The notes under the pieces are model-generated. The model worked only from the letters and a program-made list of their open reading frames with translations. It was not told the origin of the DNA and searched no databases. Source: a virus. Taken from it: 21,313 nucleotides of DNA. The stretch lies in UHGV virus genome UHGV-0231970, one strand, 5' to 3'. This document shows, piece after piece, positions 1,570 through 21,313 of this stretch (position 1 is its first letter; every line of letters begins with the position of its first letter). Both the position numbers and the translations under genes were made by a program.

Positions 1570-2869
1570 TCTCCCGCATATTGCCAGTATGGCCTTTAAT
1601 GAGCCGCTGATGCTTGAACCCGCCTATGCGCGGGTTTTCTTTTGTGCGCTTGCAGGCCAGCTTGGGATCAGCCGCCTGACGGATGCGGTATCCGGCGACA
1701 GCCTGACTGCCGGAGAGGCACCCGCGGCGCTGGCGTTATCCGTTGATGATGACGGACCACGACAGGCCCGCAGTTATCAGGTCATGAACGGCATCGCCGT
1801 GCTGCCGGTGTCCGGCACGCTGGTCAGTCGGACGCGAGCGCTGCAGCCGTATTCGGGGATGACCGGTTACAACGGCATTATCGCCCGTCTGCAACAGGCT
1901 ACCAGCGACCCGATGGTGGACGGCATTCTGCTCGATATGGATACGCCAGGCGGGATGGTGGCAGGGGCATTTGACTGCGCTGACATCATCGCCCGTATGC
2001 GTGACATAAAGCCGGTATGGGCGCTGGCCAACGACATGAACTGCAGTGCAGGTCAGTTGCTTGCCAGCGCCGCCTCCCGACGTCTGGTCACGCAGACCGC
2101 CCGGACAGGCTCCATCGGCGTCATGATGGCTCACAGTAATTACGGTGCTGCGCTGGAGAAACAGGGCGTGGAAATCACGCTGATTTACAGCGGCAGCCAT
2201 AAGGTGGATGGCAACCCCTACAGCCATCTACCGGATGATGTCCGGGAAACACTGCAGTCCCGGATGGATGCAACCCGCCGGATGTTTGCACAGAAGGTGT
2301 CGGCATATACCGGCCTGTCCGTGCAGGCTGTGCTGGATACCGAGGCTGCAGTGTACAGCGGTCAGGAGGCCATTGATGCCGGACTGGCTGATGAACTTGT
2401 TAACAGTACCGATGCGATCACCGTCATGCGTGATGCACTGGATGCACGTAAATCCCGTCTCTCAGGAGGGCGAATGACCAAAGAGACTCAATCAACAACT
2501 GTTTCAGCCACTGCTTCGCAGGCTGACGTTACTGGCGTGGTGCAAGCGACGGAGGGCGAGAACGCCAGCGCTGCGCAGCCGGACGTGAACGCGCAGATCA
2601 CCGCAGCGGTTGCGGCAGAAAACAGTCGCATTATGGGGATCCTCAACTGTGAGGAGGCTCACGGACGCGAAGAACAGGCACGCGTGCTGGCCGAAACCCC
2701 CGGTATGACCGTGGAAACGGCCCGCCGCATTCTGGCAGTTGCACCACAGAGTGCACAGGCGCGCAGTGACACTGCGCTGGATCGTCTGATGCAGGGGGCA
2801 CCGGCACCGCTGGCTGCAGGTAACCCGGCATCTGATGCCGTTAACGATTTGCTGAACACACCAGTGTAA
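1550..2869 (+). CDS. C: Prohead protease / minor capsid protein C (S49 ClpP-like family)
   Basis: ORF 1415..2869 contains the lambda gpC sequence starting at GTG 1550 (MTAELRNLPHIASMAF...). Overlaps the B 3' end by 20 nt. Internal-start choice by homology, 439 codons. Confidence 0.88.
   Translation: MTAELRNLPHIASMAFNEPLMLEPAYARVFFCALAGQLGISRLTDAVSGDSLTAGEAPAALALSVDDDGPRQARSYQVMNGIAVLPVSGTLVSRTRALQPYSGMTGYNGIIARLQQATSDPMVDGILLDMDTPGGMVAGAFDCADIIARMRDIKPVWALANDMNCSAGQLLASAASRRLVTQTARTGSIGVMMAHSNYGAALEKQGVEITLIYSGSHKVDGNPYSHLPDDVRETLQSRMDATRRMFAQKVSAYTGLSVQAVLDTEAAVYSGQEAIDAGLADELVNSTDAITVMRDALDARKSRLSGGRMTKETQSTTVSATASQADVTGVVQATEGENASAAQPDVNAQITAAVAAENSRIMGILNCEEAHGREEQARVLAETPGMTVETARRILAVAPQSAQARSDTALDRLMQGAPAPLAAGNPASDAVNDLLNTPV
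2474..2869 (+). CDS. Nu3: Capsid scaffolding protein Nu3, nested in-frame in the 3' third of C
   Basis: Internal ATG 2474 in the C frame, preceded by AGGAGGG (2464-2470); product MTKETQSTTVSATASQ... matches lambda Nu3 from recall and shares its stop with C. Confidence 0.8.
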   Translation: MTKETQSTTVSATASQADVTGVVQATEGENASAAQPDVNAQITAAVAAENSRIMGILNCEEAHGREEQARVLAETPGMTVETARRILAVAPQSAQARSDTALDRLMQGAPAPLAAGNPASDAVNDLLNTPV

Positions 2870-2878
2870 GGGATGTTT

Positions 2879-3211
2879 ATGACGAGCAAAGAAACCTTTA
2901 CCCATTACCAGCCGCTGGGCAACAGTGACCCGGCTCATACCGCAACCGCGCCCGGCGGATTGAGTGCGAAAGCGCCTGCAATGACCCCGCTGATGCTGGA
3001 CACCTCCAGCCGTAAGCTGGTTGCGTGGGATGGCACCACCGACGGTGCTGCCGTTGGCATTCTTGCGGTTGCTGCTGACCAGACCAGCACCACGCTGACG
3101 TTCTACAAGTCCGGCACGTTCCGTTATGAGGATGTGCTCTGGCCGGAGGCTGCCAGCGACGAGACGAAAAAACGGACCGCGTTTGCCGGAACGGCAATCA
3201 GCATCGTTTAA
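2879..3211 (+). CDS. D: Head decoration protein gpD
   Basis: ORF 2873..3211; [27 protein letters not shown]... matches lambda gpD (110 aa) from ATG 2879. The ATG at 2873 is an alternative start two codons upstream. Confidence 0.9.
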
Positions 3212-3228
3212 CTTTACCCTTCATCACT

Positions 3229-3253
3229 AAAGGCCGCCTGTGCGGCTTTTTTT
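3229..3253 (+). terminator. Intrinsic-terminator-like hairpin between D and E (stem GCCGC / GCGGC, loop CTGT, followed by a T-run)
   Basis: Read directly: AAAGGCCGC-CTGT-GCGGCTTTTTTT. The A-tract and T-tract extend the stem, so it could act in either direction. Sits between D stop (3211) and E start (3267). Confidence 0.45.
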
Positions 3254-3266
3254 ACGGGATTTTTTT

Positions 3267-4292
3267 ATGTCGATGTACACAACCGCCCAGCTGCTGGCGG
3301 CAAATGAGCAGAAATTTAAGTTTGATCCGCTGTTTCTGCGTCTCTTTTTCCGTGAGAGCTATCCCTTCACTACGGAGAAAGTCTATCTCTCACAAATTCC
3401 GGGACTGGTAAACATGGCGCTGTACGTTTCGCCGATTGTTTCCGGTGAGGTTATCCGTTCCCGTGGCGGCTCCACCTCTGAATTTACGCCGGGATATGTC
3501 AAACCCAAGCATGAAGTGAATCCGCAGATGACCCTGCGTCGCCTGCCGGATGAAGATCCGCAGAATCTGGCGGACCCGGCTTACCGCCGCCGTCGCATCA
3601 TCCTGCAGAACATGCGTGACGAAGAGCTGGCCATTGCTCAGGTCGAAGAGATGCAGGCAGTTTCTGCCGTGCTCAAGGGCAAATACACCATGACCGGTGA
3701 AGCCTTCGATCCGGTTGAGGTGGATATGGGCCGCAGTGCGGCGAACAACATCACGCAGTCCGGCGGCACGGAGTGGAGCAAGCGTGACAAGTCCACGTAT
3801 GACCCGACCGACGATATCGAAGCCTACGCGCTGAACGCCAGCGGCGTGGTGAATATCATCGTGTTTGATCCGAAAGGCTGGGCGCTGTTCCGTTCCTTCA
3901 AAGCCGTCAAGGAGAAGCTGGATACCCGTCGCGGCTCTCATTCCGAGCTGGAGACAGCGGTGAAAGACCTGGGTAAAGCGGTGTCCTATAAGGGGATGTA
4001 TGGCGATGTGGCCATCGTCGTGTATTCCGGACAGTACGTGGAAAACGGCGTCAAAAAGAACTTCCTGCCGGACAACACGATGGTGCTGGGTAACACTCAT
4101 GCACGCGGTCTGCGCACCTATGGCTGTATTCAGGATGCGGATGCATTGAGTGAGGGTATTAATGCGTCTCCCCGTTATCCGAAAAACTGGAAGACATCCG
4201 GCGATCCGGCGCGAGAGTTCACCATGATTCAGTCAGCACCGCTGATGCTGCTGGCTGATCCTGATGAGTTCGTGTCCGTTCAACTGGCGTAA
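3267..4292 (+). CDS. E: Major capsid protein gpE
   Basis: ORF 3240..4292; MSMYTTAQLLAANEQKFKFDPLFLRLFF... matches lambda gpE (341 aa) from ATG 3267. The GTG at 3240 lies inside the upstream hairpin and is unlikely to be used. Confidence 0.95.
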   Translation: MSMYTTAQLLAANEQKFKFDPLFLRLFFRESYPFTTEKVYLSQIPGLVNMALYVSPIVSGEVIRSRGGSTSEFTPGYVKPKHEVNPQMTLRRLPDEDPQNLADPAYRRRRIILQNMRDEELAIAQVEEMQAVSAVLKGKYTMTGEAFDPVEVDMGRSAANNITQSGGTEWSKRDKSTYDPTDDIEAYALNASGVVNIIVFDPKGWALFRSFKAVKEKLDTRRGSHSELETAVKDLGKAVSYKGMYGDVAIVVYSGQYVENGVKKNFLPDNTMVLGNTHARGLRTYGCIQDADALSEGINASPRYPKNWKTSGDPAREFTMIQSAPLMLLADPDEFVSVQLA

Positions 4293-4294
4293 TC

Positions 4295-4312
4295 ATGGCC
4301 CTTCGGGGCCAT
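4295..4312 (+). promoter_or_regulatory. Perfect 7-bp stem with TTCG (UUCG) tetraloop immediately after the E stop codon
   Basis: Read directly: ATGGCCC-TTCG-GGGCCAT at 4295-4312, followed by TTTCTCTC. The ATG inside the stem (4295) is the upstream alternative start of the FI ORF. Confidence 0.4.
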
Positions 4313-4333
4313 TTTCTCTCTGTGGAGGAGTCC

Positions 4334-4729
4334 ATGACGAAAGATGAACTGATTGCCCGTCTTCAGGTGCTGGGTGAGCAACTGAACCGTGATGTCAGCC
4401 TGACGGGGACGAAAGAAGAACTGGCGCTCCGTGTGGCAGAGCTGGAAGAGGAGCTTGATGACACGGATGACGCTGCCGGTCAGGACACATCTGTCAGCCC
4501 GGAAAATGCGCTGACCGGACATGAAAATGAGGTGGTATCAGCGCAGCCGGATACCGTGACTGATACGGCTGATCTGGTCACGGTTGTGGCACTGGTGACG
4601 CTGCATACCGATGCACTTCACGCCACGCGGGATGAGGCTGTGGCATTTGTGCTGCCGGGAACGGCGTTCCGTGTCTCTGCCGGTGTGTCAGCTGAAATGA
4701 CAGAGCGCGGCCTGGCCAGAATGCAATAA
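4334..4729 (+). CDS. FI: DNA packaging / head assembly protein gpFI
   Basis: ORF 4295..4729; MTKDELIARLQVLGEQLNRDVSLTGTKEELALRVAELEEELDD... matches lambda FI from ATG 4334, preceded by GGAGGAG (4324-4330). Confidence 0.85.
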   Translation: MTKDELIARLQVLGEQLNRDVSLTGTKEELALRVAELEEELDDTDDAAGQDTSVSPENALTGHENEVVSAQPDTVTDTADLVTVVALVTLHTDALHATRDEAVAFVLPGTAFRVSAGVSAEMTERGLARMQ

Positions 4730-4740
4730 CGGGAGGCGCT

Positions 4741-5094
4741 GTGGCTGATTTCGATAACCTGTTCGATGCTGCCATTGCCCGCGCCGATGAAACGATACGC
4801 GGGTACATGGGAACGTCAGCCACCATGACATCCGGTGAGCAGTCCGGCGCAGTAATACGTGGTGTTTTTGATGACCCTGAAAATATCAGCTATGCCGGAC
4901 AGGGCGTGCGCGTTGAAGGCTCCAGCCCGTCCCTGTTTGTCCGGACTGATGATGTGCGGCAACTGCGGCGTGGAGACACGCTGACCATCGGTGAGGAAAA
5001 CTTCTGGATAGACCGGGTTTCGCCGGATGATGGTGGAAGCTGTCATCTCTGGCTTGGGCGGGGCGTACCGCCTGCCGTTAACCGTCGCCGCTGA
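4741..5094 (+). CDS. FII: Head-tail joining (head completion) protein gpFII
   Basis: ORF 4741..5094 (117 aa, GTG start) matches lambda FII over its full length (MADFDNLFDAAIARADETIRGYMGTS...). GGGAGG at 4731-4736. Confidence 0.9.
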   Translation: MADFDNLFDAAIARADETIRGYMGTSATMTSGEQSGAVIRGVFDDPENISYAGQGVRVEGSSPSLFVRTDDVRQLRRGDTLTIGEENFWIDRVSPDDGGSCHLWLGRGVPPAVNRRR

Positions 5095-5105
5095 AAGGGG
5101 GATGT

Positions 5106-5684
5106 ATGGCCATAAAAGGTCTTGAGCAGGCCGTTGAAAACCTCAGCCGTATCAGCAAAACGGCGGTGCCTGGTGCCGCCGCAATGGCCATTAACCGCGT
5201 TGCTTCATCCGCGATATCGCAGTCGGCGTCACAGGTTGCCCGTGAGACAAAGGTACGCCGGAAACTGGTAAAGGAAAGGGCCAGGCTGAAAAGGGCCACG
5301 GTCAAAAATCCGCAGGCCAGAATCAAAGTTAACCGGGGGGATTTGCCCGTAATAAAGCTGGGTAACGCGCGGATTGTCCTGTCCCGACGCAGGCGTCGTA
5401 AAAAGGGGCAGCGTTCAGCCCTGAAAGGTGGCGGCAGCGTGCTTGTGGTGGGAAACCGTCGTATTCCCGGCGCGTTTATTCAGCAACTGAAAAATGGCCG
5501 CTGGCATGTCATGCAGCGTGTGGCCGGGAAAAACCGTTACCCCATTGATGTGTTGAAAATCCCGATGGCGGTGCCGCTGACCACGGCGTTTAAACAGAAT
5601 ATTGAACGGATACGGCGTGAACGTCTTCCGAAAGAGCTGGGCTATGCGCTGCAGCATCAACTGAGAATGGTAATAAAGCGATGA
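5106..5684 (+). CDS. Z: Minor tail protein gpZ (tail completion)
   Basis: ORF 5106..5684, 192 aa, MAIKGLEQAVENLSRISKTAVPGAAAMAINRV... matches lambda Z. Stop TGA overlaps the U start as ATGA. Confidence 0.9.
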   Translation: MAIKGLEQAVENLSRISKTAVPGAAAMAINRVASSAISQSASQVARETKVRRKLVKERARLKRATVKNPQARIKVNRGDLPVIKLGNARIVLSRRRRRKKGQRSALKGGGSVLVVGNRRIPGAFIQQLKNGRWHVMQRVAGKNRYPIDVLKIPMAVPLTTAFKQNIERIRRERLPKELGYALQHQLRMVIKR

Positions 5685-6076
5685 AACATACTGAACTCCG
5701 TGCAGCCGTACTGGATGCACTGGAGAAGCATGACACCGGGGCGACGTTTTTTGATGGTCGCCCCGCTGTTTTTGATGAGGCGGATTTTCCGGCAGTTGCC
5801 GTTTATCTCACCGGCGCTGAATACACGGGCGAAGAGCTGGACAGCGATACCTGGCAGGCGGAGCTGCATATCGAAGTTTTCCTGCCTGCTCAGGTGCCGG
5901 ATTCAGAGCTGGATGAGTGGATGGAGTCCCGGATTTATCCGGTGATGAGTGATATCCCGGCACTGTCAGATTTGATCACCAGTATGGTGGCCAGCGGCTA
6001 TGACTACCGGCGCGACGATGATGCGGGCCTGTGGAGTTCAGCCGATCTGACTTATGTCATTACCTATGAAATGTGA
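5681..6076 (+). CDS. U: Tail tube terminator protein gpU
   Basis: ORF 5681..6076, 131 aa, [39 protein letters not shown]... matches lambda U. Confidence 0.9.
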
Positions 6077-6083
6077 GGACGCT

Positions 6084-6824
6084 ATGCCTGTACCAAATCC
6101 TGTAATGCCGGTGAAAGGTGCCGGGACCACCCTGTGGGTTTATAAGGGAAGCGGTGACCCTTATGCGAATCCGCTTTCAGACGTTGACTGGTCGCGTCTG
6201 GCAAAAGTTAAAGACCTGACGCCCGGCGAACTGACCGCTGAGTCCTATGACGACAGCTATCTCGATGATGAAGATGCAGACTGGACTGCGACCGGGCAGG
6301 GGCAGAAATCTGCCGGAGATACCAGCTTCACGCTGGCGTGGATGCCCGGAGAGCAGGGGCAGCAGGCGCTGCTGGCGTGGTTTAATGAAGGGGATACCCG
6401 AGCCTATAAAATCCGCTTCCCGAACGGCACGGTCGATGTGTTCCGCGGCTGGGTCAGCAGTATCGGTAAGGCGGTGACGGCGAAGGAAGTGATCACCCGC
6501 ACGGTGAAGGTCACCAATGTGGGCCGTCCGTCGATGGCAGAAGATCGCAGCACGGTGACGGCGACAACCGGCATGACTGTGACGCCTGCCAGCACCTCGG
6601 TGGTGAAAGGGCAGAGCACCACGCTGACCGTGGCATTCCAGCCGGAAGGCGCAACCGACAAGAGCTTCCGTGCGGTGTCTGCGGATAAAACAAAAGCCAC
6701 CGTGTCGGTCAGTGGTATGACCATCACCGTGAAAGGTGTTGCTGCAGGCAAGGTCAACATTCCGGTCGTATCCGGTAATGGTGAGTTTGCTGCGGTTGCA
6801 GAAATCAACGTCACCGCCAGTTAA
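6084..6824 (+). CDS. V: Major tail tube protein gpV (with C-terminal Ig-like domain)
   Basis: ORF 6054..6824; lambda gpV homology starts at ATG 6084 ([22 protein letters not shown]...), GAGGA at 6075-6079. 246 aa. Confidence 0.9.
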
Positions 6825-6839
6825 TCCGGAGAGTCAGCG

Positions 6840-7262
6840 ATGTTCCTGAAAACCGAATCATTTGAACATAACGGTGTGACCGTCACGCTTTCTGAACTGT
6901 CAGCCCTGCAGCGTATTGAGCATCTCGCCCTGATGAAACGACAGGCAGAACAGGCGGAGTCAGACAGCAACCGGAAGTTTACTGTGGAAGACGCCATCAG
7001 AACCGGCGCTTTTGTGGTGGCGATGTCCCTGTGGCATAACCATCCGCAGAAGACAAAGCTGCCTTCTATGAATGAAGCCGTTAAACAGATTGAGCAGGAA
7101 GTGCTTACCACCTGGCCCACGGAGGCAATTTCTCATGCTGAAAACGTGGTGTACCGGCTGTCCGGTATGTATGAGTTTGTGGTGAATGATGCTCCTGAAC
7201 AGACAGAGGACGCCGGGCCTGCAGAGCCTGTTTCTGCGGGAAAGTGTTCGATGGTGAGCTGA
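6840..7262 (+). CDS. G: Tail assembly chaperone gpG
   Basis: ORF 6840..7262, 140 aa, MFLKTESFEHNGVTVTLSELSALQRIEHLALMKRQ... matches lambda G. Confidence 0.9.
   Translation: MFLKTESFEHNGVTVTLSELSALQRIEHLALMKRQAEQAESDSNRKFTVEDAIRTGAFVVAMSLWHNHPQKTKLPSMNEAVKQIEQEVLTTWPTEAISHAENVVYRLSGMYEFVVNDAPEQTEDAGPAEPVSAGKCSMVS
7238..7244 (+). promoter_or_regulatory. Programmed -1 ribosomal frameshift slippery heptamer G GGA AAG (G to G-T)
   Basis: Read directly: GGGAAAG at 7238-7244 in the G frame (codons GCG GGA AAG). The -1 frame from 7244 is open through the T ORF to 7678. Confidence 0.8.
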
Positions 7263-7678
7263 GTTTTGCCCTGAAACTGGCGCGAGAGATGGGGCGACCC
7301 GACTGGCGTGCCATGCTTGCCGGGATGTCATCCACGGAGTATGCCGACTGGCACCGCTTTTACAGTACCCATTATTTTCATGATGTTCTGCTGGATATGC
7401 ACTTTTCCGGGCTGACGTACACCGTGCTCAGCCTGTTTTTCAGCGATCCGGATATGCATCCGCTGGATTTCAGTCTGCTTAACCGGCGCGAGGCTGACGA
7501 AGAGCCTGAAGATGATGTGCTGATGCAGAAAGCGGCAGGGCTTGCCGGAGGTGTCCGCTTTGGCCCGGACGGGAATGAAGTTATCCCCGCTTCCCCGGAT
7601 GTGGCGGACATGACGGAGGATGACGTAATGCTGATGACAGTATCAGAAGGGATCGCAGGAGGAGTCCGGTATGGCTGA
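7244..7678 (+). CDS. T: T segment of the tail assembly chaperone fusion gpGT (expressed as G residues 1-~135 + T via -1 frameshift)
   Basis: ORF 7244..7678 (FDGELSFALKLAREMGRPDWRAMLAGMSSTEYADW...) matches lambda gpT. It has no independent ATG or SD; the first codon is GTG at the slip site. Confidence 0.85.
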   Translation: MFDGELSFALKLAREMGRPDWRAMLAGMSSTEYADWHRFYSTHYFHDVLLDMHFSGLTYTVLSLFFSDPDMHPLDFSLLNRREADEEPEDDVLMQKAAGLAGGVRFGPDGNEVIPASPDVADMTEDDVMLMTVSEGIAGGVRYG

Positions 7679-10232
7679 ACCGGTAGGCGATCTGGTCGTT
7701 GATTTAAGTCTGGATGCGGCCAGATTTGACGAGCAGATGGCCAGAGTCAGGCGTCATTTTTCCGGTACGGAAACTGATGCGAAAAAAACAGCGGCAGTCG
7801 TTGAACAGTCGCTGAGCCGACAGGCGCTGGCTGCACAGAAAGCGGGGATTTCCGTCGGGCAGTATAAAGCCGCCATGCGTATGCTGCCTGCACAGTTCAC
7901 CGACGTGGCCACGCAGCTTGCAGGCGGGCAAAGCCCGTGGCTGATCCTGCTGCAACAGGGGGGTCAGGTGAAGGACTCCTTCGGCGGGATGATCCCCATG
8001 TTCCGGGGGCTTGCCGGTGCGATCACCCTGCCGATGGTGGGGGCCACCTCGCTGGCGGTGGCGACCGGTGCGCTGGCGTATGCCTGGTATCAGGGCAACT
8101 CAACCCTGTCCGATTTCAACAAAACGCTGGTCCTTTCCGGCAATCAGGCCGGGCTGACGGCAGATCGTATGCTGGTCCTGTCCAGAGCCGGGCAGGCGGC
8201 AGGGCTGACGTTTAACCAGACCAGCGAGTCACTCAGTGCACTGGTTAAGGCGGGGGTAAGTGGTGAGGCTCAGATTGCGTCCATCAGCCAGAGTGTGGCG
8301 CGTTTCTCTTCTGCATCCGGTGTGGAGGTGGACAAGGTCGCTGAAGCCTTCGGGAAGCTGACCACTGACCCGACGTCGGGGCTGACGGCGATGGCGCGCC
8401 AGTTCCATAACGTGACGGCGGAGCAGATTGCGTATGTTGCTCAGTTGCAGCGTTCCGGCGATGAAGCCGGGGCATTGCAGGCGGCGAACGAAGCCGCAAC
8501 GAAAGGGTTTGATGACCAGACCCGCCGCCTGAAAGAGAACATGGGCACGCTGGAGACCTGGGCAGACAGGACAGCGCGGGCATTCAAATCCATGTGGGAT
8601 GCGGTGCTGGATATTGGTCGTCCTGATACCGCGCAGGAGATGCTGATTAAGGCAGAGGCTGCGTTTAAGAAAGCAGACGACATCTGGAATCTGCGCAAGG
8701 ATGATTATTTTGTTAACGATGAAGCGCGGGCGCGTTACTGGGATGATCGTGAAAAGGCCCGTCTTGCGCTTGAAGCCGCCCGAAAGAAGGCTGAGCAGCA
8801 GACTCAACAGGACAAAAATGCGCAGCAGCAGAGCGATACCGAAGCGTCACGGCTGAAATATACCGAAGAGGCGCAGAAGGCTTACGAACGGCTGCAGACG
8901 CCGCTGGAGAAATATACCGCCCGTCAGGAAGAACTGAACAAGGCACTGAAAGACGGGAAAATCCTGCAGGCGGATTACAACACGCTGATGGCGGCGGCGA
9001 AAAAGGATTATGAAGCGACGCTGAAAAAGCCGAAACAGTCCGGCGTGAAGGTGTCTGCGGGCGATCGTCAGGAAGACAGTGCTCATGCTGCCCTGCTGAC
9101 GCTTCAGGCAGAACTCCGGACGCTGGAGAAGCATGCCGGAGCGAATGAGAAAATCAGCCAGCAGCGCCGGGATTTGTGGAAGGCGGAGAGTCAGTTCGCG
9201 GTACTGGAGGAGGCGGCGCAACGTCGCCAGCTGTCTGCACAGGAGAAATCCCTGCTGGCGCATAAAGATGAGACGCTGGAGTACAAACGCCAGCTGGCTG
9301 CACTTGGCGACAAGGTTACGTATCAGGAGCGCCTGAACGCGCTGGCGCAGCAGGCGGATAAATTCGCACAGCAGCAACGGGCAAAACGGGCCGCCATTGA
9401 TGCGAAAAGCCGGGGGCTGACTGACCGGCAGGCAGAACGGGAAGCCACGGAACAGCTCCTGAAGGAACAGTATGGCGATAATCCGCTGGCGCTGAATAAC
9501 GTCATGTCAGAGCAGAAAAAGACCTGGGCGGCTGAAGACCAGCTTCGCGGGAGCTGGATGGCAGGCCTGAAGTCCGGCTGGAGTGAGTGGGAAGAGAGCG
9601 CCACGGACAGTATGTCGCAGGTTAAAAGTGCAGCCACGCAGACCTTTGATGGTATTGCACAGAATATGGCGGCGATGCTGACCGGCAGTGAGCAGAACTG
9701 GCGCAGCTTCACCCGTTCCGTGCTGTCCATGATGACAGAAATTCTGCTTAAGCAGGCAATGGTGGGGATTGTCGGGAGTATCGGCAGCGCCATTGGCGGT
9801 GCTGCCAGTGGTGGAGCATCCGCGTCAGGCGGTACAGCCATTCAGGCCGCTGCGGCGAAATTCCATTTTGCGACCGGGGGATTTACGGGAACCGGCGGCA
9901 AATATGAGCCAGCGGGGATTGTTCACCGTGGTGAATTTGTCTTCACGAAGGAGGCAACCAGCCGGATTGGTGTCGGCAACCTGTACCGCCTGATGCGGGG
10001 CTATGCGGAAGGTGGTTATGTGGGCGGTGCCGGAAGTCCGGCGCAGATGCGGCGGGCTGAAGGCATTAATTTTAATCAGAACAATCACGTGGTGATTCAG
10101 AACGACGGTACGAATGGTCTGCCAGGTCCACAGATGATGAAGGCAGTGTATGACATGGCCCGCAAGGGTGCCCGTGATGAAATTCAGACACAGATGCGTG
10201 ATGGTGGCCTGTTCTCCGGAGGTGGACGATGA
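7671..10232 (+). CDS. H: Tail tape measure protein gpH
   Basis: ORF 7671..10232, 853 aa, MAEPVGDLVVDLSLDAARFDEQMARVRRHF... matches lambda H. GGAGGAG upstream; overlaps the T 3' end by 8 nt. Confidence 0.95.
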   Translation: MAEPVGDLVVDLSLDAARFDEQMARVRRHFSGTETDAKKTAAVVEQSLSRQALAAQKAGISVGQYKAAMRMLPAQFTDVATQLAGGQSPWLILLQQGGQVKDSFGGMIPMFRGLAGAITLPMVGATSLAVATGALAYAWYQGNSTLSDFNKTLVLSGNQAGLTADRMLVLSRAGQAAGLTFNQTSESLSALVKAGVSGEAQIASISQSVARFSSASGVEVDKVAEAFGKLTTDPTSGLTAMARQFHNVTAEQIAYVAQLQRSGDEAGALQAANEAATKGFDDQTRRLKENMGTLETWADRTARAFKSMWDAVLDIGRPDTAQEMLIKAEAAFKKADDIWNLRKDDYFVNDEARARYWDDREKARLALEAARKKAEQQTQQDKNAQQQSDTEASRLKYTEEAQKAYERLQTPLEKYTARQEELNKALKDGKILQADYNTLMAAAKKDYEATLKKPKQSGVKVSAGDRQEDSAHAALLTLQAELRTLEKHAGANEKISQQRRDLWKAESQFAVLEEAAQRRQLSAQEKSLLAHKDETLEYKRQLAALGDKVTYQERLNALAQQADKFAQQQRAKRAAIDAKSRGLTDRQAEREATEQLLKEQYGDNPLALNNVMSEQKKTWAAEDQLRGSWMAGLKSGWSEWEESATDSMSQVKSAATQTFDGIAQNMAAMLTGSEQNWRSFTRSVLSMMTEILLKQAMVGIVGSIGSAIGGAASGGASASGGTAIQAAAAKFHFATGGFTGTGGKYEPAGIVHRGEFVFTKEATSRIGVGNLYRLMRGYAEGGYVGGAGSPAQMRRAEGINFNQNNHVVIQNDGTNGLPGPQMMKAVYDMARKGARDEIQTQMRDGGLFSGGGR

Positions 10233-10558
10233 AAACCTTCCGCTGGAAAGTGAAACCCGGTATGGATGTGGCTTCGGCCCCTTCTGTAAGAAAGGTGCGC
10301 TTTGGTGATGGCTATTCCCAGCGAGCGCCTGCCGGGCTGAATGCCAACCTGAAAACGTACAGCGTGACGCTTTCTGTCCCCCGTGAGGAGGCCACGGTAC
10401 TGGAGTCGTTTCTGGAAGAGCACGGGGGCTGGAAAGCCTTTCTGTGGACGCCGCCTTATGAGTGGCGGCAGATAAAGGTGACCTGCGCAAAATGGTCGTC
10501 GCGGGTCAGTATGCTGCGTGTTGAGTTCAGCGCAGAGTTTGAACAGGTGGTGAACTGA
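10229..10558 (+). CDS. M: Minor tail protein gpM
   Basis: ORF 10229..10558, 109 aa, MKTFRWKVKPGMDVASAPSVRKVRFGDGYSQRAPAG... matches lambda M. ATGA overlap with the H stop. Confidence 0.9.
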   Translation: MKTFRWKVKPGMDVASAPSVRKVRFGDGYSQRAPAGLNANLKTYSVTLSVPREEATVLESFLEEHGGWKAFLWTPPYEWRQIKVTCAKWSSRVSMLRVEFSAEFEQVVN

Positions 10559-11256
10559 TGCAGGATATCCGGCAGGAAACACTGAATGAATGCACCCGTG
10601 CGGAGCAGTCGGCCAGCGTGGTGCTCTGGGAAATCGACCTGACAGAGGTCGGTGGAGAACGTTATTTTTTCTGTAATGAGCTGAACGAAAAAGGTGAGCC
10701 GGTCACCTGGCAGGGGCGACAGTATCAGCCGTATCCCATTCAGGGGAGTGGTTTTGAACTGAATGGCAAAGGCACCAGTACGCGCCCCACGCTGACGGTT
10801 TCTAACCTGTACGGTATGGTCACCGGGATGGCGGAAGATCTGCAGAGTCTGGTCGGCGGAACGGTGGTCCGGCGTAAGGTTTACGCCCGTTTTCTGGATG
10901 CGGTGAACTTCGTTAACGGAAACAGTGACGCCGATCCGGAGCAGGAGGTGATCAGCCGCTGGCGCATCGAGCAGTGCAGCGAACTGAGCGCGGTGAGTGC
11001 CTCCTTTGTACTGTCCACGCCGACGGAAACAGATGGCGCTGTTTTTCCGGGACGTATCATGCTGGCCAACACCTGCACCTGGACCTATCGCGGCGATGAG
11101 TGCGGTTATCACGGTCCGGCGGTCGCGGATGAATATGACCAGACAACGTCCGATATCACGAAGGATAAATGCAGCAAATGCCTGAGTGGCTGTAAGTTTC
11201 GCAATAACGTCGGCAACTTTGGCGGCTTCCTTTCCATTAACAAACTTTCGCAGTAA
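10558..11256 (+). CDS. L: Minor tail (tail tip) protein gpL
   Basis: ORF 10558..11256, 232 aa, MQDIRQETLNECTRAEQSASVVLWEIDLTEVGGERYFFCNE... matches lambda L. Start ATG overlaps the M stop (TGATG). Cys cluster near the C-terminus (C..C...C..C). Confidence 0.9.
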   Translation: MQDIRQETLNECTRAEQSASVVLWEIDLTEVGGERYFFCNELNEKGEPVTWQGRQYQPYPIQGSGFELNGKGTSTRPTLTVSNLYGMVTGMAEDLQSLVGGTVVRRKVYARFLDAVNFVNGNSDADPEQEVISRWRIEQCSELSAVSASFVLSTPTETDGAVFPGRIMLANTCTWTYRGDECGYHGPAVADEYDQTTSDITKDKCSKCLSGCKFRNNVGNFGGFLSINKLSQ

Positions 11257-11261
11257 ATCCC

Positions 11262-12005
11262 ATGACACAGACAGAATCAGCGATTCTGGCGCACGCCCAG
11301 CGATGTGCGCCAGCGGAGTCGTGCGGCTTCGTGGTGAGAACGCCGGAGGGGGAAAGATATTTTCCCTGCGTGAATATTTCCGGTGAGCCGGAGGATTATT
11401 TCCGGATGGCTCCGGAGGACTGGCTGCAGGCAGAAATGCAGGGTGAGATTGTGGCGCTGGTCCACAGCCACCCCGGTGGTCTGCCCTGGCTGAGTGAGGC
11501 TGACCGGCGGCTGCAGGTGCAGAGTGATTTGCCGTGGTTGCTGGTCTGCCGGGGGGCGATTCATAAGTTCCGCTGTGTGCCGCATCTCACCGGGCGGCGC
11601 TTTGAGCACGGGGTGACGGACTGTTACACGCTGTTCCGGGATGCTTATCATCTGGCGGGGATTGAGATGCCGAATTTTCATCGCGGGGATGACTGGTGGC
11701 GTCACGGCCAGAATCTCTATCTGGATAATCTGGAGGCCACAGGGCTGTATCAGGTGCCGTTGTCATCAGCACAACCGGGCGATGTGCTGCTGTGCTGTTT
11801 TGGTTCATCGGTGCCGAATCATGCCGCCATTTACTGCGGCGACGGTGAGCTGTTGCACCATATTCCTGAACAACTGAGCAAACGAGAGAGGTATACCGAC
11901 AAATGGCAGCGACGCACACACTCCCTCTGGCGTCACCGGGCATGGCACGCATCTGCCTTTACGGGGATTTACAACGATTTGGCCGCCGCATCGACCTTCG
12001 TGTGA
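11262..12005 (+). CDS. K: Tail tip assembly protein gpK (MPN/JAMM-like plus NlpC/P60-like peptidase domains)
   Basis: ORF 11262..12005 (247 aa) begins 6 nt after the L stop. Lambda K homology throughout; HSHPGG (JAMM-like HxH) and a Cys-His pair (GVTDCYTLF ... NHAAIY). An internal ATG at 11406 would give the 199-aa form; the 3' end overlaps I by 103 nt. Confidence 0.8.
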   Translation: MTQTESAILAHAQRCAPAESCGFVVRTPEGERYFPCVNISGEPEDYFRMAPEDWLQAEMQGEIVALVHSHPGGLPWLSEADRRLQVQSDLPWLLVCRGAIHKFRCVPHLTGRRFEHGVTDCYTLFRDAYHLAGIEMPNFHRGDDWWRHGQNLYLDNLEATGLYQVPLSSAQPGDVLLCCFGSSVPNHAAIYCGDGELLHHIPEQLSKRERYTDKWQRRTHSLWRHRAWHASAFTGIYNDLAAASTFV

Positions 12006-12574
12006 AAACGGGGGCTGAAGCCATCCGGGCACTGGCCACACAGCTCCCGGCGTTTCGTCAGAAACTGAGCGACGGCTGGTATCAGGTACGGATTGCCGGG
12101 CGGGACGTCAGCACGTCCGGGTTAACGGCGCAGTTACATGAGACTCTGCCTGATGGCGCTGTGATTCATATTGTTCCCAGAGTCGCCGGGGCCAAGTCAG
12201 GTGGCGTATTCCAGATTGTCCTGGGGGCTGCCGCCATTGCCGGATCATTCTTTACCGCCGGAGCCACCCTTGCAGCATGGGGGGCAGCCATTGGGGCCGG
12301 TGGTATGACCGGCATCCTGTTTTCTCTCGGTGCCAGTATGGTACTTGGTGGTGTGGCGCAGATGCTGGCACCGAAAGCCAGGACGCCCACGGCAGCAAGT
12401 ACAGATAACGGCAAACAGAACACCTATTTCTCCTCACTGGATAACATGGTTGCCCAGGGCAATGTTCTGCCCGTTCTGTACGGTGAAATGCGCGTGGGGT
12501 CGCGGGTGGTCTCTCAGGAGATCAGCACGGCAGACGAAGGGGATGGTGGTCAGGTTGTGGTGATTGGTCGCTGA
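11903..12574 (+). CDS. I: Tail tip assembly protein gpI
   Basis: ORF 11903..12574, 223 aa, MAATHTLPLASPGMARICLYGDLQRFGRRIDLRVKTGAEAIRAL... matches lambda I. Gly/Ala-rich hydrophobic C-terminal half. Confidence 0.9.
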   Translation: MAATHTLPLASPGMARICLYGDLQRFGRRIDLRVKTGAEAIRALATQLPAFRQKLSDGWYQVRIAGRDVSTSGLTAQLHETLPDGAVIHIVPRVAGAKSGGVFQIVLGAAAIAGSFFTAGATLAAWGAAIGAGGMTGILFSLGASMVLGGVAQMLAPKARTPTAASTDNGKQNTYFSSLDNMVAQGNVLPVLYGEMRVGSRVVSQEISTADEGDGGQVVVIGR

Positions 12575-12591
12575 TGAAAAACGTTTATGTG

Positions 12592-12612
12592 AAACCGCCT
12601 GCGGGCGGTTTT
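12592..12612 (+). terminator. Hairpin between I and J (AAACCGCC-TGCG-GGCGGTTT followed by T)
   Basis: Read directly; 8-bp GC-rich stem, 4-nt loop, short T-run (TTTTGTCGTTT). J RBS GAGGA and ATG 12634 follow. Confidence 0.4.
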
Positions 12613-12630
12613 GTCGTTTATGGAGCGTGA

Positions 12631-16032
<3,402 letters not shown>

Positions 16033-16050
16033 ATTTTATAACTCAGAACG

Positions 16051-16074
16051 GGCGTCAGAAATGACGCCTTTTTT
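16051..16074 (+). terminator. Rho-independent terminator after J (GGCGTCA-GAAA-TGACGCC + TTTTTT)
   Basis: Read directly: perfect 7-bp stem, GAAA loop, six T immediately 3'; 19 nt after the J stop. Confidence 0.7.
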
Positions 16075-16098
16075 ATTGCAGAAAAGCGAGAGGTAATT

Positions 16099-16698
16099 AT
16101 GCGTAAACTTTATGCCGCCATTTTGTCCGCAGCCATTTGTCTGGCCGTATCAGGTGCGCCTGCATGGGCGTCTGAACATCAGTCCACGCTGAGCGCGGGG
16201 TATCTTCATGCCTCGACGAACGTTCCCGGCAGCGATGATCTGAACGGGATTAACGTGAAATACCGTTATGAGTTTACGGACACACTGGGGATGGTGACGT
16301 CATTCAGCTATGCAGGAGACAAGAATCGCCAGCTGACTCATTACAGCGATACCCGCTGGCATGAAGATTCCGTTCGTAACCGCTGGTTCAGCGTAATGGC
16401 GGGGCCGTCTGTGCGCGTGAATGAATGGTTCAGCGCGTATGCGATGGCGGGTGTGGCTTACAGCCGTGTGTCGACTTTCTCCGGGGATTATCTCCGCGTA
16501 ACTGACAACAAGGGGAAAACGCACGATGTGCTGACCGGAAGTGATGACGGTCGCCACAGCAACACGTCTCTGGCGTGGGGAGCTGGCGTGCAGTTTAACC
16601 CGACCGAATCCGTGGCCATTGATGTCGCTTATGAAGGCTCCGGCAGTGGTGACTGGCGCACTGACGGGTTCATCGTGGGTGTTGGTTATAAATTCTGA
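16099..16698 (+). CDS. lom: Lom-family outer membrane protein (Ail/Lom/PagC beta-barrel family; lysogenic-conversion moron)
   Basis: ORF 16099..16698, 199 aa. Signal-peptide-like N-terminus (MRKLYAAILSAAICLAVSGAPAWA). The C-terminal half (...MAGPSVRVNEWFSAYAMAGVAYSRV... AYEGSGSGDWRTDGFIVGVGYKF) matches lambda Lom including the terminal aromatic residue. RBS AGAGG upstream. Confidence 0.85.
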   Translation: MRKLYAAILSAAICLAVSGAPAWASEHQSTLSAGYLHASTNVPGSDDLNGINVKYRYEFTDTLGMVTSFSYAGDKNRQLTHYSDTRWHEDSVRNRWFSVMAGPSVRVNEWFSAYAMAGVAYSRVSTFSGDYLRVTDNKGKTHDVLTGSDDGRHSNTSLAWGAGVQFNPTESVAIDVAYEGSGSGDWRTDGFIVGVGYKF

Positions 16699-16724
16699 TT
16701 AGCCAGGTAACACAGTGTTATGAC

Positions 16725-16751
16725 AGCCCGCCGGTTCAGGCGGGCTTTTTT
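16725..16751 (+). terminator. Rho-independent terminator after lom (AGCCCGCC-GGTTCA-GGCGGGCT + TTTTTT)
   Basis: Read directly: 8-bp GC stem, 6-nt loop, T-run 16746-16750. Confidence 0.7.
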
Positions 16752-16762
16752 GTGGGGTGAAT

Positions 16763-19700
16763 ATGGCAGTAAAAATTTCAGGTGTACTGAAAGACGGCAC
16801 AGGAAAACCGGTACAGAACTGCACAATCCAGCTGAAAGCAAAACGTAACAGTACCACGGTGGTGGTGAACACGCTGGCATCTGAAAATCTGGATGAAGCC
16901 GGGCGTTACAGTATGGACGTTGAGTACGGTCAGTACAGCGTTATTCTGTTGGTGGAAGGATTCCCGCCGTCACATGCCGGGACCATCACAGTGTATGAAG
17001 ATTCCCGACCCGGTACGCTGAATGATTTTCTCGGTGCCATGACGGAGGATGATGCCCGTCCGGAGGCACTGCGCCGTTTTGAGCTGATGGTGGAAGAGGT
17101 GGCGCGTAACGCGTCCGTGGTGGCACAGAACACGGCAGCCGCGAAGAAGTCAGCCAGTGATGCCAGCACATCAGCCCGTGAGGCGGCAACCCATGCGACT
17201 GATGCTGCAGGCTCAGCACGCGCAGCCAGCACGTCAGCCGGACAGGCCGCGTCGTCGGCTCAGTCAGCGTCTTCCAGCGCAGGAACGGCATCAACAAAGG
17301 CCACTGAAGCCTCAAAAAGTGCTGCCGCTGCAGAGTCCTCAAAAAGCGCGGCGGCTACCAGTGCCGGTGCGGCGAAAACGTCAGAAACGAATGCGGCAGC
17401 GTCAGAACAATCAGCCGCCACTTCTGCATCCACCGCGACCACGAAAGCGTCAGAAGCTGCCACCTCAGCCAGGGATGCGTCGGCTTCAAAAGAGGCGGCA
17501 AAATCATCAGAAACGAACGCATCATCAAGCGCCAGTAGTGCAGCTTCCTCGGCAACGGCGGCAGGAAATTCCGCGAAGGCGGCAAAGACGTCTGAGACAA
17601 ACGCCAGGTCCTCTGAAACGGCAGCAGCACAGAGTGCCTCCGCAGCAGCAGGCTCAAAAACAGCGGCTGTGTCGTCGGCCAGTGCCGCGTCAACAAGTGC
17701 CGGGCAGGCCTCAGCCAGTGCCACCGCCGCCGGAAAATCGGCAGAAAGCGCCGCATCATCCGCTTCAACAGCCACAACGAAGGCTGGCGAAGCCACTGAA
17801 CAGGCCACTGCAGCAGCGAGGGCTGCTTCCGCAGCGAAGACATCCGAAACGAACGCGAAAGCGTCGGAAACCAGCGCAGAATCCTCAAAAACGGCTGCCG
17901 CATCGTCCGCCAGTTCGGCGGCGTCATCGGCATCATCGGCGTCTGCTTCAAAAGATGAGGCGACCAGACAGGCGTCAGCAGCGAGGGGCAGCGCCACGAC
18001 GGCATCCACGAAGGCGACAGAGGCTGCTGGCAGTGCGGCAGCGGCAGCACAGAGCAAAAGTACGGCAGAATCCGCAGCAACTCGCGCTGAGACAGCGGCA
18101 AAACGGGCAGAGGATATTGCATCCGCCGTGGCGCTTGAGGATGCGAGCACGACGAAAAAGGGGATAGTACAGCTCAGCAGTGCGACTAACAGCACGTCTG
18201 AAACGCTGGCGGCAACGCCAAAGGCAGTAAAAGCAGCCTATGACAATGCAGAGAAACGTCTGCAGAAAGACCAGAACGGTGCTGATATTCCCGACAAGGA
18301 CCGCTTCCTGAGTAACATTAATGTTTACAGCAAAGGTGAAGTGGATCAGAAAAAGGGGATGCGATACGTTGTGGTAAATGCCCCGGCGGGTGTCCAGGAA
18401 GGTAAATATTATCCGTTAGTGATAAAAAGGAATGACAGCCATCGGGCATCCCGCGTTGTCATTTCAACGCCAAGTCGCTTAGCTAATCACAGAATGAATA
18501 ATTGTGAGTTTAATGGTTTTGTTTGCGCAGGCGGCTGGACGGACCGGGGTAGCTATGCCTGTGGTATGTTCTGGGCTTATTCATCATCGGAACGCGCTAT
18601 TCATTCCATTCTGATGAGTAATAAAGGCGATACCGTAGACAGCGTATTCTATATAGAAGGTGGGGCATTTCCCGTAGAGGTCTTTTTAGAAGAAGGTCTC
18701 TCCGTTACTGCACCTGCTTCTGATTATATTGTTGCTGAAACGACTTATAAATTTGGCGCAACTGATCCTTATTCTGAATCAGTTGCGGTAAATTTAATTT
18801 TAGATTTTAAACAAGGTAATGGATTTTATAGTTCGTATCCTGTTTTGAGTAAGTCAGACATTAGCGGGAATAAGATTTACGCTAATGATGAAGTTATTGT
18901 CCGTAGTCAGAACGCGTTAAGGATGATTGCAGGTGATTACGGTGTCATATGGCGAAATGATGGAGCAAATACTTACTTGCTCATGACTGATAAAGGCGAC
19001 CAGTACGGTGGCTGGAACGGTCTTCGACCATTTGCAGTAAATAACGCAACAGGTGAAGTGACGATCAATACACCACTTAATTCTCCTAAGGGGATTAAGG
19101 GAAATTCTTATACAGCTACGAAACTTCAGACAGCAATAAAAATATCTGGTGTTTCGTTTGATGGTTCTACTGATATCACTTTAACCGCTGCGCATGTTGC
19201 TGCTTTTGCCAGAAGAGCAACGGATACGTATGCCGATGCGGATGGGGGCGTTCCCTGGAATGCCGAATCAGGCGCTTACAATGTCACTCGCTCTGGCGAC
19301 AGCTATATTCTGGTTAACTTCTATACCGGAGTCGGAAGTTGCCGGACCTTGCAGATGAAGGCGCATTACAGAAATGGTGGTCTGTTCTACCGTTCTTCAA
19401 GAGATGGCTATGGTTTTGAGGAAGACTGGGCAGAAGTTTATACCTCGAAAAATCTTCCACCAGAAAGCTACCCAGTCGGTGCACCAATCCCGTGGCCATC
19501 AGATACCGTTCCGTCTGGCTATGCCCTGATGCAGGGGCAGACTTTTGACAAATCTGCTTACCCGAAACTTGCAGCCGCTTATCCGTCAGGCGTGATCCCT
19601 GATATGCGTGGCTGGACGATTAAGGGCAAGCCCACCAGTGATCGAGCCGTATTGTCTCAGGAACAGGACGGCATTAAATCACACACCCACAGCGCCAGCG

Positions 19701-20140
19701 TATCCAGTACGGATTTGGGGACGAAAACCACATCGTCGTTTGATTACGGCACTAAATCCACGAATAACACTGGTGCGCATACCCATAGTGTTAGCGGTAC
19801 GGCTGCTTCAGCCGGTGCACATACCCATTCGATGACATTTGTTTCAGGTGGTTCCAGTGGTGCTCCGGGAAGTGGATCACCTGATTATTCTAAATACAGT
19901 GTTAACACTTCTTCTGCAGGCGCTCATACGCACTCTGTATCGGGTACTGCTGCAAGCGCAGGTGCACACGCACATACTGTCGGTATTGGTGCTCATACGC
20001 ACTCCGTTGCGATTGGTTCACATGGACATACGTCTTCAACGAGATGCCACGATGCCTCATCACTGTTGAAAACAGCCACGAAGCCTGCCGGAATATCTGG
20101 CGGTGCAATATCGATACTGTTTGCTGGCAGACCTGTATGA
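16763..20140 (+). CDS. stf: Side tail fibre protein Stf (long mosaic form, with a non-canonical C-terminal 35 residues)
   Basis: ORF 16757..20140 (the GTG at 16757 gives the ORF-track M; homology-consistent ATG at 16763, [26 protein letters not shown]...). Lambda Stf-like N-terminus, Ala/Ser/Thr-rich repeats, AT-rich central segment, seven His-x-His boxes, then an ending not found in lambda Stf. Confidence 0.85.
19954..20031 (+). repeat. Left copy of a perfect 78-bp inverted repeat (inside the stf coding sequence, His-box region)
   Basis: Direct comparison: 19954-20031 is the exact reverse complement of 20320-20397; identity stops at both outer ends (19953 and 20398 do not pair). Confidence 0.9.
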
Positions 20141-20319
20141 GGCGGAATATATGCGTCAACTTCACCAATAAATTCATTAGTTCCGGCCAGCAGATTATAA
20201 ATTTTTATGGTCCGTGGTTGTTCATTCATTCTGAATGCCATTATGCAAGCCTCACAATATAGTTAAATGCGATGTTTTTGACGGTGTTTTCCGCGTTACC
20301 AGCAGCGTTAACGGTGATG
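20032..20319 (-). other. 288-bp segment between the inverted repeats, carrying the canonical stf 3' end (...[25 protein letters not shown]) and tfa codons 1-~69 on the - strand
   Basis: - strand ORFs 20241..20453 and 19993..20241: the first ends ...[31 protein letters not shown] (lambda Stf C-terminus); the second begins [27 protein letters not shown]... (lambda Tfa N-terminus). They are joined by a TAATG stop/start overlap at 20239-20243. Confidence 0.85.
20035..20241 (-). pseudogene. tfa: tfa' : N-terminal fragment of the tail fibre assembly protein Tfa (about 69 homologous codons, then runs into the antisense of the left repeat)
   Basis: ORF 19993..20241 (-): [70 protein letters not shown] matches the lambda Tfa N-terminus; the remaining 12 residues ([12 protein letters not shown]) are antisense of the stf His-box codons. 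No Tfa C-terminal part anywhere in the window. Confidence 0.8.
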
Positions 20320-20397
20320 GTATGTCCATGTGAACCAATCGCAACGGAGTGCGTATGAGCACCAATACCGACAGTATGTGCGTGTGCACCTGCGCTT
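20320..20397 (+). repeat. Right copy of the perfect 78-bp inverted repeat
   Basis: Exact reverse complement of 19954-20031; on the - strand it encodes [25 protein letters not shown] in the stf frame. Confidence 0.9.
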
Positions 20398-20529
20398 CCG
20401 TGTCTTATCTTCATCATCAACAACGATAAAAATTTTCCCGGTATAGCCAGCACGACGCAACGTCCGGTAAGTCAGAACTTTGTCCGGTCGCCCGTGAGTC
20501 AGAATAAAGGCGCAAAAATCATCACGCAT
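20398..20529 (-). pseudogene. 5' fragment (about 42 codons) of an unidentified gene, truncated at the right inverted-repeat boundary
   Basis: - strand ATG at 20529-20527 preceded by GGAGGAGGA, overlapping the upstream stop as ATGCGTGA. Product [42 protein letters not shown], then the frame enters the repeat and becomes Cys/Arg-rich nonsense (ORF 20308..20550). The pattern I-x-T-x-x-R-P-D ... I-x-V-V-D-D is reminiscent of a GT-A-fold glycosyltransferase N-terminus, but this is weak. Confidence 0.45.
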
Positions 20530-21313
20530 ATTCCTCCTCCTCACCACCATGCATGATCTCCACCATGCGCTGCGTCATCCGGACAAATCCATTTTCAATA
20601 GCCTGCTGATAATCAATGATCACCAGCGCCGACTCCTCGAAAAAACACTGAATTTCAGAGGGGGCGTGAGCGTAATAGTCCGCAATTCTGCTGAAATTAA
20701 ACACCGTGTGACGTTCTGCCGCACACAGGAGGAATTTCTCAATATCAGGCTCAAGGGACGCCGAACGTATCCGGCTGATCAGCTCCTGAGTTTTCGTATC
20801 GTCGTACAGTTCACTGATATCCGGTTTACCGCCCGACGGCTCATAAACAGGCGTATCAATTTTCGTCGTATACGGCTCCTCCTCATTTCCTGTACCGGGC
20901 AAAACATCCGTCAACAGTTCATCAATTTCTGTCGGGATGAAGCCTGTCAGGGAGACATCAAAATCAGCATTGATTAGGTCCGACAGCTCCATCCGCAACA
21001 GATCTTCATCCCAGCCAGCATTCATCGGCAGGCGATTATCTGCCAGGCGGTACGCCTTTTTCTGCTCATCCGTCAGGCCAGACAGAACAATGACCGGAAC
21101 AGAATCCATTTTGAGCATTTCAGCCGCCATAACACGACCGTGACCCGCAATAATTTCGCCCTTTTCGTCAATCAGCACCGGATTAGTCCAGCCGAATTGC
21201 TTAATACTTTCTACCAGTTGTGCCACCTGCTCAGGGCTGTGCGTCCTGGCGTTGTGCGCATACGGTGACAATTCTTGTAATGGGCGATAGACTATCTTTA
21301 ATTTCTCGCTCAT
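20522..21313 (-). CDS. ParB N-terminal-domain (ParB/sulfiredoxin-like nuclease fold) protein; start codon lies exactly at the window edge
   Basis: ORF 20522..21313 (-), 263 aa. Motifs typical of ParB-like domains: LSPYAHNARTH, IAGHGRVMAA (GxxR box), AYRLADNRL. Acidic C-terminal tail (GGEEEEYA) whose codons form the SD of the next gene. Cannot tell whether the protein extends beyond the window. Confidence 0.7.
   Translation of the reverse strand: MSEKLKIVYRPLQELSPYAHNARTHSPEQVAQLVESIKQFGWTNPVLIDEKGEIIAGHGRVMAAEMLKMDSVPVIVLSGLTDEQKKAYRLADNRLPMNAGWDEDLLRMELSDLINADFDVSLTGFIPTEIDELLTDVLPGTGNEEEPYTTKIDTPVYEPSGGKPDISELYDDTKTQELISRIRSASLEPDIEKFLLCAAERHTVFNFSRIADYYAHAPSEIQCFFEESALVIIDYQQAIENGFVRMTQRMVEIMHGGEEEEYA

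Follow-up and report, generated by a model that had tools for sequence, protein, structure and literature searches.

The terminal part of a side tail fibre gene (stf) in the virus genome UHGV-0231970 is bracketed by a long inverted repeat, which raises the question of whether this locus is a tail-fibre switch, the fossil of such a switch, or an arrangement with an altogether different origin. In the stretch of DNA that we analysed (21,313 nt; hereafter the window) a repeat search recovered two arms of 78 nt (19954-20031 and 20320-20397; 100% complementary, spacer of 288 nt), in agreement with an earlier note that had described them as exact reverse complements and had proposed that they delimit either an active switch or a fossil of one. 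A perfect inverted repeat of 78 nt is far beyond chance in 21 kb, and it exists because one piece of the stf gene occurs twice, the repeat itself not being selected for. Translation confirmed that both arms lie in the His-box coding region of stf (GAHxH repeats). On the plus strand, the stf of a lambda-like prophage (hereafter prophage X; 16763-20140) contains the left arm and reads normally up to ...AIGSHGHT at 20031 (native to codon ~1090), from where it continues into antisense tfa and gains a nonsense tail of 35 aa that ends with a stop at 20140. The minus strand, followed from 20397 downward, encodes the His-box peptide of the right arm (20320-20397), the native 25-residue end of Stf (last 25 codons plus stop, 20241-20319, in which the stop overlaps the tfa start codon as TAATG) and residues 1-70 of the tail fibre assembly protein Tfa (20032-20241; MAFRMNEQ...SWHLVED, M1-D70). 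The spacer cargo had thus been described correctly as regards the last 25 stf codons and the tfa start, the number of tfa codons being 70 and not 69.

Inversion of positions 20032-20319 in silico restored an in-frame lambda-type stf end (as had been anticipated), yielding a 1115-aa Stf identical to the one encoded by a related metagenome scaffold (L009), while the Tfa of the flipped state consisted of 70 native and 12 junk residues. The Pfam domains detected in Stf were phage_tail_N, Gp34_trimer, Collar and Phage_fiber; the Caudo_TAP domain occupies residues 72-191 of the full 194-aa Tfa and is absent here in either orientation, so that Tfa is predicted to be non-functional in both of them. 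The Stf shaft (window 17100-18200) comprises a long Ala/Ser/Thr-rich stretch of low complexity with many imperfect direct repeats (families D1-D7), which also yield long spurious open reading frames in the other frames and on the opposite strand.

The plus strand of the window carries a lambda-like late operon (portal, tape measure at 7671-10232, J at 12634-16032, lom at 16099-16698 and stf from 16763), within which a stretch of 17.4 kb (2634-20031) was found to be 100% identical to scaffold L009 and to show 1 mismatch to L007 and 4 to L006, both of them NCBI draft contigs. In all three relatives the stf gene (1115 aa) runs through the His box and its last 25 codons into a 194-aa tfa, beyond which a methyltransferase gene, appY and ompT typify the DLP12/argU neighbourhood. 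Because of the full identity to contigs with a normal stf-tfa arrangement, the left arm (19954-20031) was assigned to prophage X, and every alignment of an X relative to the window ends exactly at 20031. A prophage of 98.7% identity, with a pin gene after tfa, resides at the Qin site (ydfJ) of strain CT29.

The opposite flank of the repeat belongs to another prophage. Positions 20396-21313 show 100% identity to many Rac prophages, among them that of E. coli SE11, and encode on the minus strand a ParB/Srx-family protein (20522-21313; 263 aa, the full-length form of ynaK, next to which trkG is found in Rac relatives) and the first 44 codons of a truncated 310-aa TET-associated glycosyltransferase (TAGT; 20398-20529). 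The gene order of the intact SE11 Rac prophage is trkG, ParB, TAGT and terminase, and its full-length glycosyltransferase bears the domain PF20691 (RefSeq name 'GREB1-related protein'). At 20397/20398 (hereafter junction 2) TAGT codon 44 is fused to the His box of the Rac stf (stfR), with a microhomology of 2 bp (TT). A 221-bp query over junction 2 had, among complete E. coli genomes, a 100% match solely in E. coli cM2a; no match was found in metagenomes, IMG/VR or representative genomes, and an exact-protein look-up of the open reading frame that spans the junction returned none on record. In cM2a the Rac remnant (trkG, truncated ynaK, regulator, truncated TAGT, a 156-bp stf 3' fragment, tfaR and pinR) is base-identical to the window over 20211-20815. 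The Rac-type neighbourhood (ParB/ynaK and TAGT) and the shared deletion junction are therefore both present, with trkG itself lying beyond the window. Since cM2a lacks a prophage at the Qin site (ydfJ intact) as well as at the DLP12 site (argU site empty), and thus has no X at either locus, junction 2 arose in Rac independently of X. In line with this, strain FT130 has the same breakpoint on the glycosyltransferase side and has lost another 30 bp, and strains CH4799 and MSHS472 have a different Rac deletion that likewise ends in the stf His-box region; as other Rac remnants carry like deletions ending in the same part of stf, such scars are routine. Judged by these identities, junction 2 is an old deletion scar internal to Rac, and the right arm is the first 78 nt of the truncated stfR fragment and not a copy of the left arm. 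We also considered cM2a as the unrearranged ancestor, with X beside the Rac remnant, and rejected it, given that both its Qin and its DLP12 site are free of a prophage; it informs on the Rac side only.

These two origins bear directly on the idea of a fossil switch, according to which an invertible cassette of the Mu G, P1 C or e14 P type once stood at the end of this stf and has since degraded. We regard this as highly improbable. Rac-type prophages with true invertible segments do exist (as in L023, described below), and Rac and Qin-site relatives have a pin gene just after tfa; the outer flank of the right arm, however, is the Rac glycosyltransferase gene and not pin or an alternative fibre cassette, and the spacer holds a single cassette, collinear with a normal stf-tfa. 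Moreover, the repeats of the real segment in L023 lie far upstream of the His boxes and contain a 26-bp crossover site, neither of which applies here. The status of junction 2 as a deletion within Rac largely refutes such a cassette, and the fossil interpretation fails inasmuch as the arms stem from two different prophages (X on the left, and on the right a Rac remnant whose junction 2 recurs in cM2a).

The earlier note had further taken the zero divergence between the arms as a sign of a recent event, which we found to be unsupported. Complete E. coli records with the exact 78-nt allele (100% identity) number 336 and include cM2a, which has no X at either of the above two sites; versions that are at least 90% identical occur in 3573 of the 5426 E. 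coli genomes, and the exact allele is shared by the cM2a Rac remnant, the Qin-site prophage of CT29 and the relatives of X. Being so widespread, the allele renders the identity of the arms uninformative on recency.

With regard to an active switch, the window was scanned for the sites and genes on which known tail-fibre inversion depends. No match was found in it for the Gin/Cin/Pin/Hin core AAACCNNGGTTT (at most 1 mismatch), for the 24-nt crossover consensus (at most 3 mismatches) or for the e14 P-segment repeat CCTTCTCCCAAACCAA (at most 3 mismatches; repeat sequence taken from PMC12529663), which bears out the observation that the window has no crossover site of the AAACC..GGTTT type. The motif scan is capable of finding such sites, since it detected gix-like ones in a positive control, L023, as 38-nt repeats containing TTCCTGTAAACCGAGGTTTTAGATAA. 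The annotation of homologous regions likewise upheld the statement that the window has no invertase gene: every region with an open reading frame corresponds in annotated relatives to structural genes, ParB or the truncated TAGT, and pinR, which follows tfaR in Rac relatives, is missing, its place being past the break in tfa (codon 70). The segment contains one cassette (25 stf and 70 tfa codons), collinear with a normal stf-tfa, and no second one. The positive control is itself a Rac-type prophage (trkG-ParB context) with a Gin/Pin-type invertible tail-fibre segment (9355-12441; GCA_014527525.1, JABCUZ010000020.1), in which 38-nt inverted repeats with a gix-like site enclose 3011 bp with two opposed cassettes of fibre tip and tfa, and in which a resolvase-family gene adjoins the invertible segment from 12492 onward; it illustrates the form of a genuine switch in this prophage family.

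In the absence of a dedicated site, the 288-bp segment could still act as an on/off switch of Stf if it flipped at a useful rate through RecA, replication slippage or a Pin-family invertase supplied in trans. In favour of this stand the arms themselves (perfect, 78 nt long, only 288 bp apart and above the minimal RecA length), the in silico flip, whose Stf matches the protein of intact relatives exactly, and the presence of the X allele in the spacer, for which one or more earlier flips are the simplest explanation; additionally, PinQ, PinR and PinE reportedly work in trans on the P segment of e14 (PMC12529663). Against it, no Pin/Gin/Hin site is present even with 3 mismatches allowed, the window has no invertase gene, tfa is truncated both ways so that a complete stf-tfa module is found in neither state, conservation of the arrangement was seen nowhere in the collections searched, and the right arm can be shown to be a deletion scar of accidental origin. 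We thus hold an active switch to be very unlikely, and the claim of a tail-fibre switch falls on the lack of a recombinase gene and of a crossover site, the single cassette, the nonsense orientation and a tfa cut before Caudo_TAP; the dead rearrangement scar, named by the earlier note as the outcome that would refute its proposal, is essentially what the evidence favours.

Flipping as such is another matter. RecA can act on perfect inverted homology once its length exceeds a few tens of bp (the minimal processing segment), and closely spaced repeats are also a substrate for RecA-independent exchange. The arms (78 nt at 100% identity, spacer of 288 bp) qualify as a substrate of general recombination, so that occasional flipping at low frequency is to be expected, without a functional alternative state; the X allele of the spacer hints that a flip occurred at least once in the past. 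This is a property of any such repeat and not a dedicated mechanism. A bolder version holds that Stf has accidentally become phase-variable, RecA- or slippage-driven flips keeping both isomers in the population and Tfa being provided in trans by another prophage; we deem this very improbable, and were it true, a rearrangement scar in a grounded prophage would have turned de novo into a switch, with no dedicated recombinase.

The remaining join (20031/20032; hereafter junction 1) connects the end of the His-box region of the X stf to the reverse complement of tfa codon 70 (...CATGGACATAC joined to GTCTTCAACGAG..., the latter being antisense tfa codon 70). The join is blunt, comparison with the native partner sequences showed no microhomology, and no match to it was found in 5426 complete E. 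coli genomes, in 185,579 species-representative genomes, or in IMG/VR, JGI metagenomes and PLSDB plasmids; exact-protein look-ups of the proteins that span it (the chimeric Stf and the truncated Tfa) likewise returned none on record. Junction 1 is hence either an illegitimate join peculiar to the source strain or a product of chimeric assembly. The allele content of the inverted piece adds to the picture: the 366 bp of the minus strand (arm, stf end and tfa 1-70) have 0 mismatches to X's own sequence in L009 and 7 SNPs against cM2a, all of them in tfa (20080-20210), and tfa codons 1-70 (20032-20241) are 100% identical to those of L006, L007 and L009. Going by these base identities, the minus-strand unit combines a ParB side of the Rac type with a tfa of the X type, the changeover being located within a shared stretch of 187 bp. 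The two native breakpoints (17398/17399 and 17686/17687 in L009) both sit, on their coding strands, directly 5' of CATC (ATAC/CATCACC in stf and GAC/CATCGGG in tfa); the shared tetranucleotide is probably due to chance, and besides it we found no resemblance between the two breakpoint sequences as direct or inverted sites.

Taken together, these observations make it reasonably probable, in our judgement, that the repeat is a by-product of the late operon of X abutting a decayed Rac remnant head to head via two non-homologous joins. The X side would contribute the late operon from portal through J and lom to stf, and the Rac side, in opposite orientation, ParB, the glycosyltransferase gene in its truncated form and stfR from the His box to its 3' end; as both fragments share the widespread 78-nt His-box allele of stf, a perfect inverted repeat results where they abut. 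The older of the joins would be junction 2, the Rac-internal deletion shared with cM2a, and the second would be junction 1, which appears private, blunt and illegitimate. Given that the inverted 366 bp carry the X allele, the simplest history (in the order of events that we infer) would be a join followed by a flip: X, broken after tfa codon 70, would have joined a Rac remnant broken 78 nt into its stf fragment, and homologous recombination between the 78-nt arms would then have flipped the 288-bp spacer once. Equally parsimonious would be a conversion of the Rac copy to the X allele, after which tfa codon 70 of Rac was joined to the end of the His box in X. Either way, one older deletion and one private illegitimate join would be involved, the inverted repeat being the overlap of the two partners; the resulting locus would have no dedicated machinery, one of its orientations giving the native Stf and the other a nonsense C-terminus, and prophage X would be severed from its right end. 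We rejected a simple homologous crossover of X with Rac, whether inverted or direct, as the source, for it keeps stf and tfa collinear and cannot make junction 1.

On the K-12 map the DLP12 and Rac loci lie ~850 kb apart and are co-oriented, so that a real join between them would imply a large intra-replichore inversion or some other unusual chromosome structure outside the view of the window, which weighs against the scar reading; an inversion would predict the reciprocal junction ...GCGTTAACGGTGATG joined to CATCGGGGTAAAACGG... (antisense stf 3' end to tfa codon 71 onward). Another route, namely a deletion of ~200 kb that spans the terminus and has a Qin-site and a Rac prophage, convergently oriented, at its ends, could be envisaged from the X-like prophage that CT29 has at ydfJ; we do not favour it, as the closest relatives of X (100% identity) sit at the DLP12/ompT locus.

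That junction 1 is a singleton in the collections searched counts against the scar reading, as in this respect it is indistinguishable from a chimera. An assembly, scaffolding or library chimera would mean that the source genome holds an intact X (with stf-tfa) and, separately, a Rac remnant of the cM2a kind, and several features agree with this: junction 1 was found in none of the collections searched, the look-ups gave no record of a protein across it, microhomology is lacking at the join, and the 366 bp of the inverted piece match X's own sequence base for base. Furthermore, the left part ends 78 nt into sequence shared by X and Rac, which would correspond to the unitig overlap of a de Bruijn graph with k=79, and the arms measure 78 nt, so that an assembler with k<=77 is unable to fix the orientation of the spacer from k-mers alone (if the source was assembled in this manner, the spacer orientation itself may be unreliable). 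Nevertheless, no simple mis-traversal of a de Bruijn graph joins the end of the His box to antisense tfa codon 70, for which junction-bearing reads are needed, and the window continues with 1.3 kb of coherent Rac sequence up to a gene boundary, as would be the case inside a longer contig. A foldback or missed-adapter artefact would produce a perfect palindrome with the join at its centre, unlike the arrangement seen here; both, along with a replication foldback within X, were rejected, since the palindrome would extend into upstream stf and the Rac glycosyltransferase gene follows instead. We therefore consider a chimera a somewhat unlikely alternative to the head-to-head scar.

Compared with known systems, the locus resembles the serine-invertase switches (Mu G/Gin, P1 C/Cin, e14 P/Pin, p15B Min, and that of L023) in having inverted repeats within a fibre gene around its C-terminal part and a tfa-type chaperone gene, and in that inversion alters the C-terminus of the fibre. 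Those switches, however, have an invertase, a 26-bp crossover site and two complete cassettes, of which the window has none, its one cassette being truncated; their short sites are placed at the boundary between constant and variable parts, whereas here 78 nt of coding homology lie in the His-box region and one orientation is nonsense. Intragenic invertons also consist of a repeat-flanked segment in a coding region whose inversion recodes the C-terminus, but they are conserved and use short repeats and dedicated invertases, while the window has an accidental long repeat, no recombinase and a singleton arrangement. A further comparison is with the remnant in cM2a (NZ_CM176588.1, ~2.38 Mb), one of the decayed Rac cryptic prophage remnants that (together with those of FT130 and CH4799) form a known class: it has the same right arm, junction 2, truncated TAGT gene and ParB/ynaK, with identity over 20211-20815. 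There, however, a full tfaR follows, then pinR, and the remnant is on its own at the Rac locus; the remnant of the window stops at tfa codon 70, has tfa in its X allele and meets the stf of another prophage head to head. Homology in tail-fibre modules is a classic substrate for exchange between lambdoid prophages, and rearrangements of the latter (lambda x Rac recombinants and prophage-mediated inversions in E. coli) resemble the window in that two prophages with stf/tfa homology are joined; the private junction here differs from them in being non-homologous and inverted and not a homologous crossover.

The scar accordingly belongs to the ordinary decay and rearrangement of prophages and matters little in itself, as one more case of prophage decay with tail-fibre modules as rearrangement hotspots. 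It does carry a caution, namely that a perfect inverted repeat around a fibre tip and the start of its chaperone gene may mimic a switch of the Mu G or e14 P type and yet be an overlap of fragments; relatives separate the two, as cM2a does for the right arm and the intact X prophages do for the left. Should junction 1 be real, the chromosome of the source strain has undergone a large rearrangement between two prophage loci, which may be worth noting for the assembly or the biology of the source genome.

Several minor observations accompany this analysis. The window begins 33 nt inside the portal gene and ends (21313) at the ParB start codon, and it looks like a provirus call, with a gene-boundary trim on one side and the contig end on the other. 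At the DLP12 locus of L006 and L007 (18116-19026), a reverse-strand methyltransferase gene and a tfa fragment of 61 aa are found between tfa and appY, and constitute older scars of tail-fibre modules. Fusions of the glycosyltransferase N-terminus to the stfR His-box region were also observed in the Rac remnants of L001 (6210-6498), L002 (6210-7160), L013 (3209-3467) and L014 (3209-3600); at least two such Rac deletion types occur in complete E. coli genomes (cM2a/FT130/EC50 versus CH4799/MSHS472/others), and some of these remnants show secondary small losses in the repetitive His-box DNA. Lastly, in Rac (window 20398-21313; L003 19200-20916) the 263-aa ParB/Srx gene is followed by that of the 310-aa PF20691 glycosyltransferase, between the trkG and terminase genes; although no TET/JBP gene was seen adjoining this pair, it may represent a DNA-modification module or its remnant.
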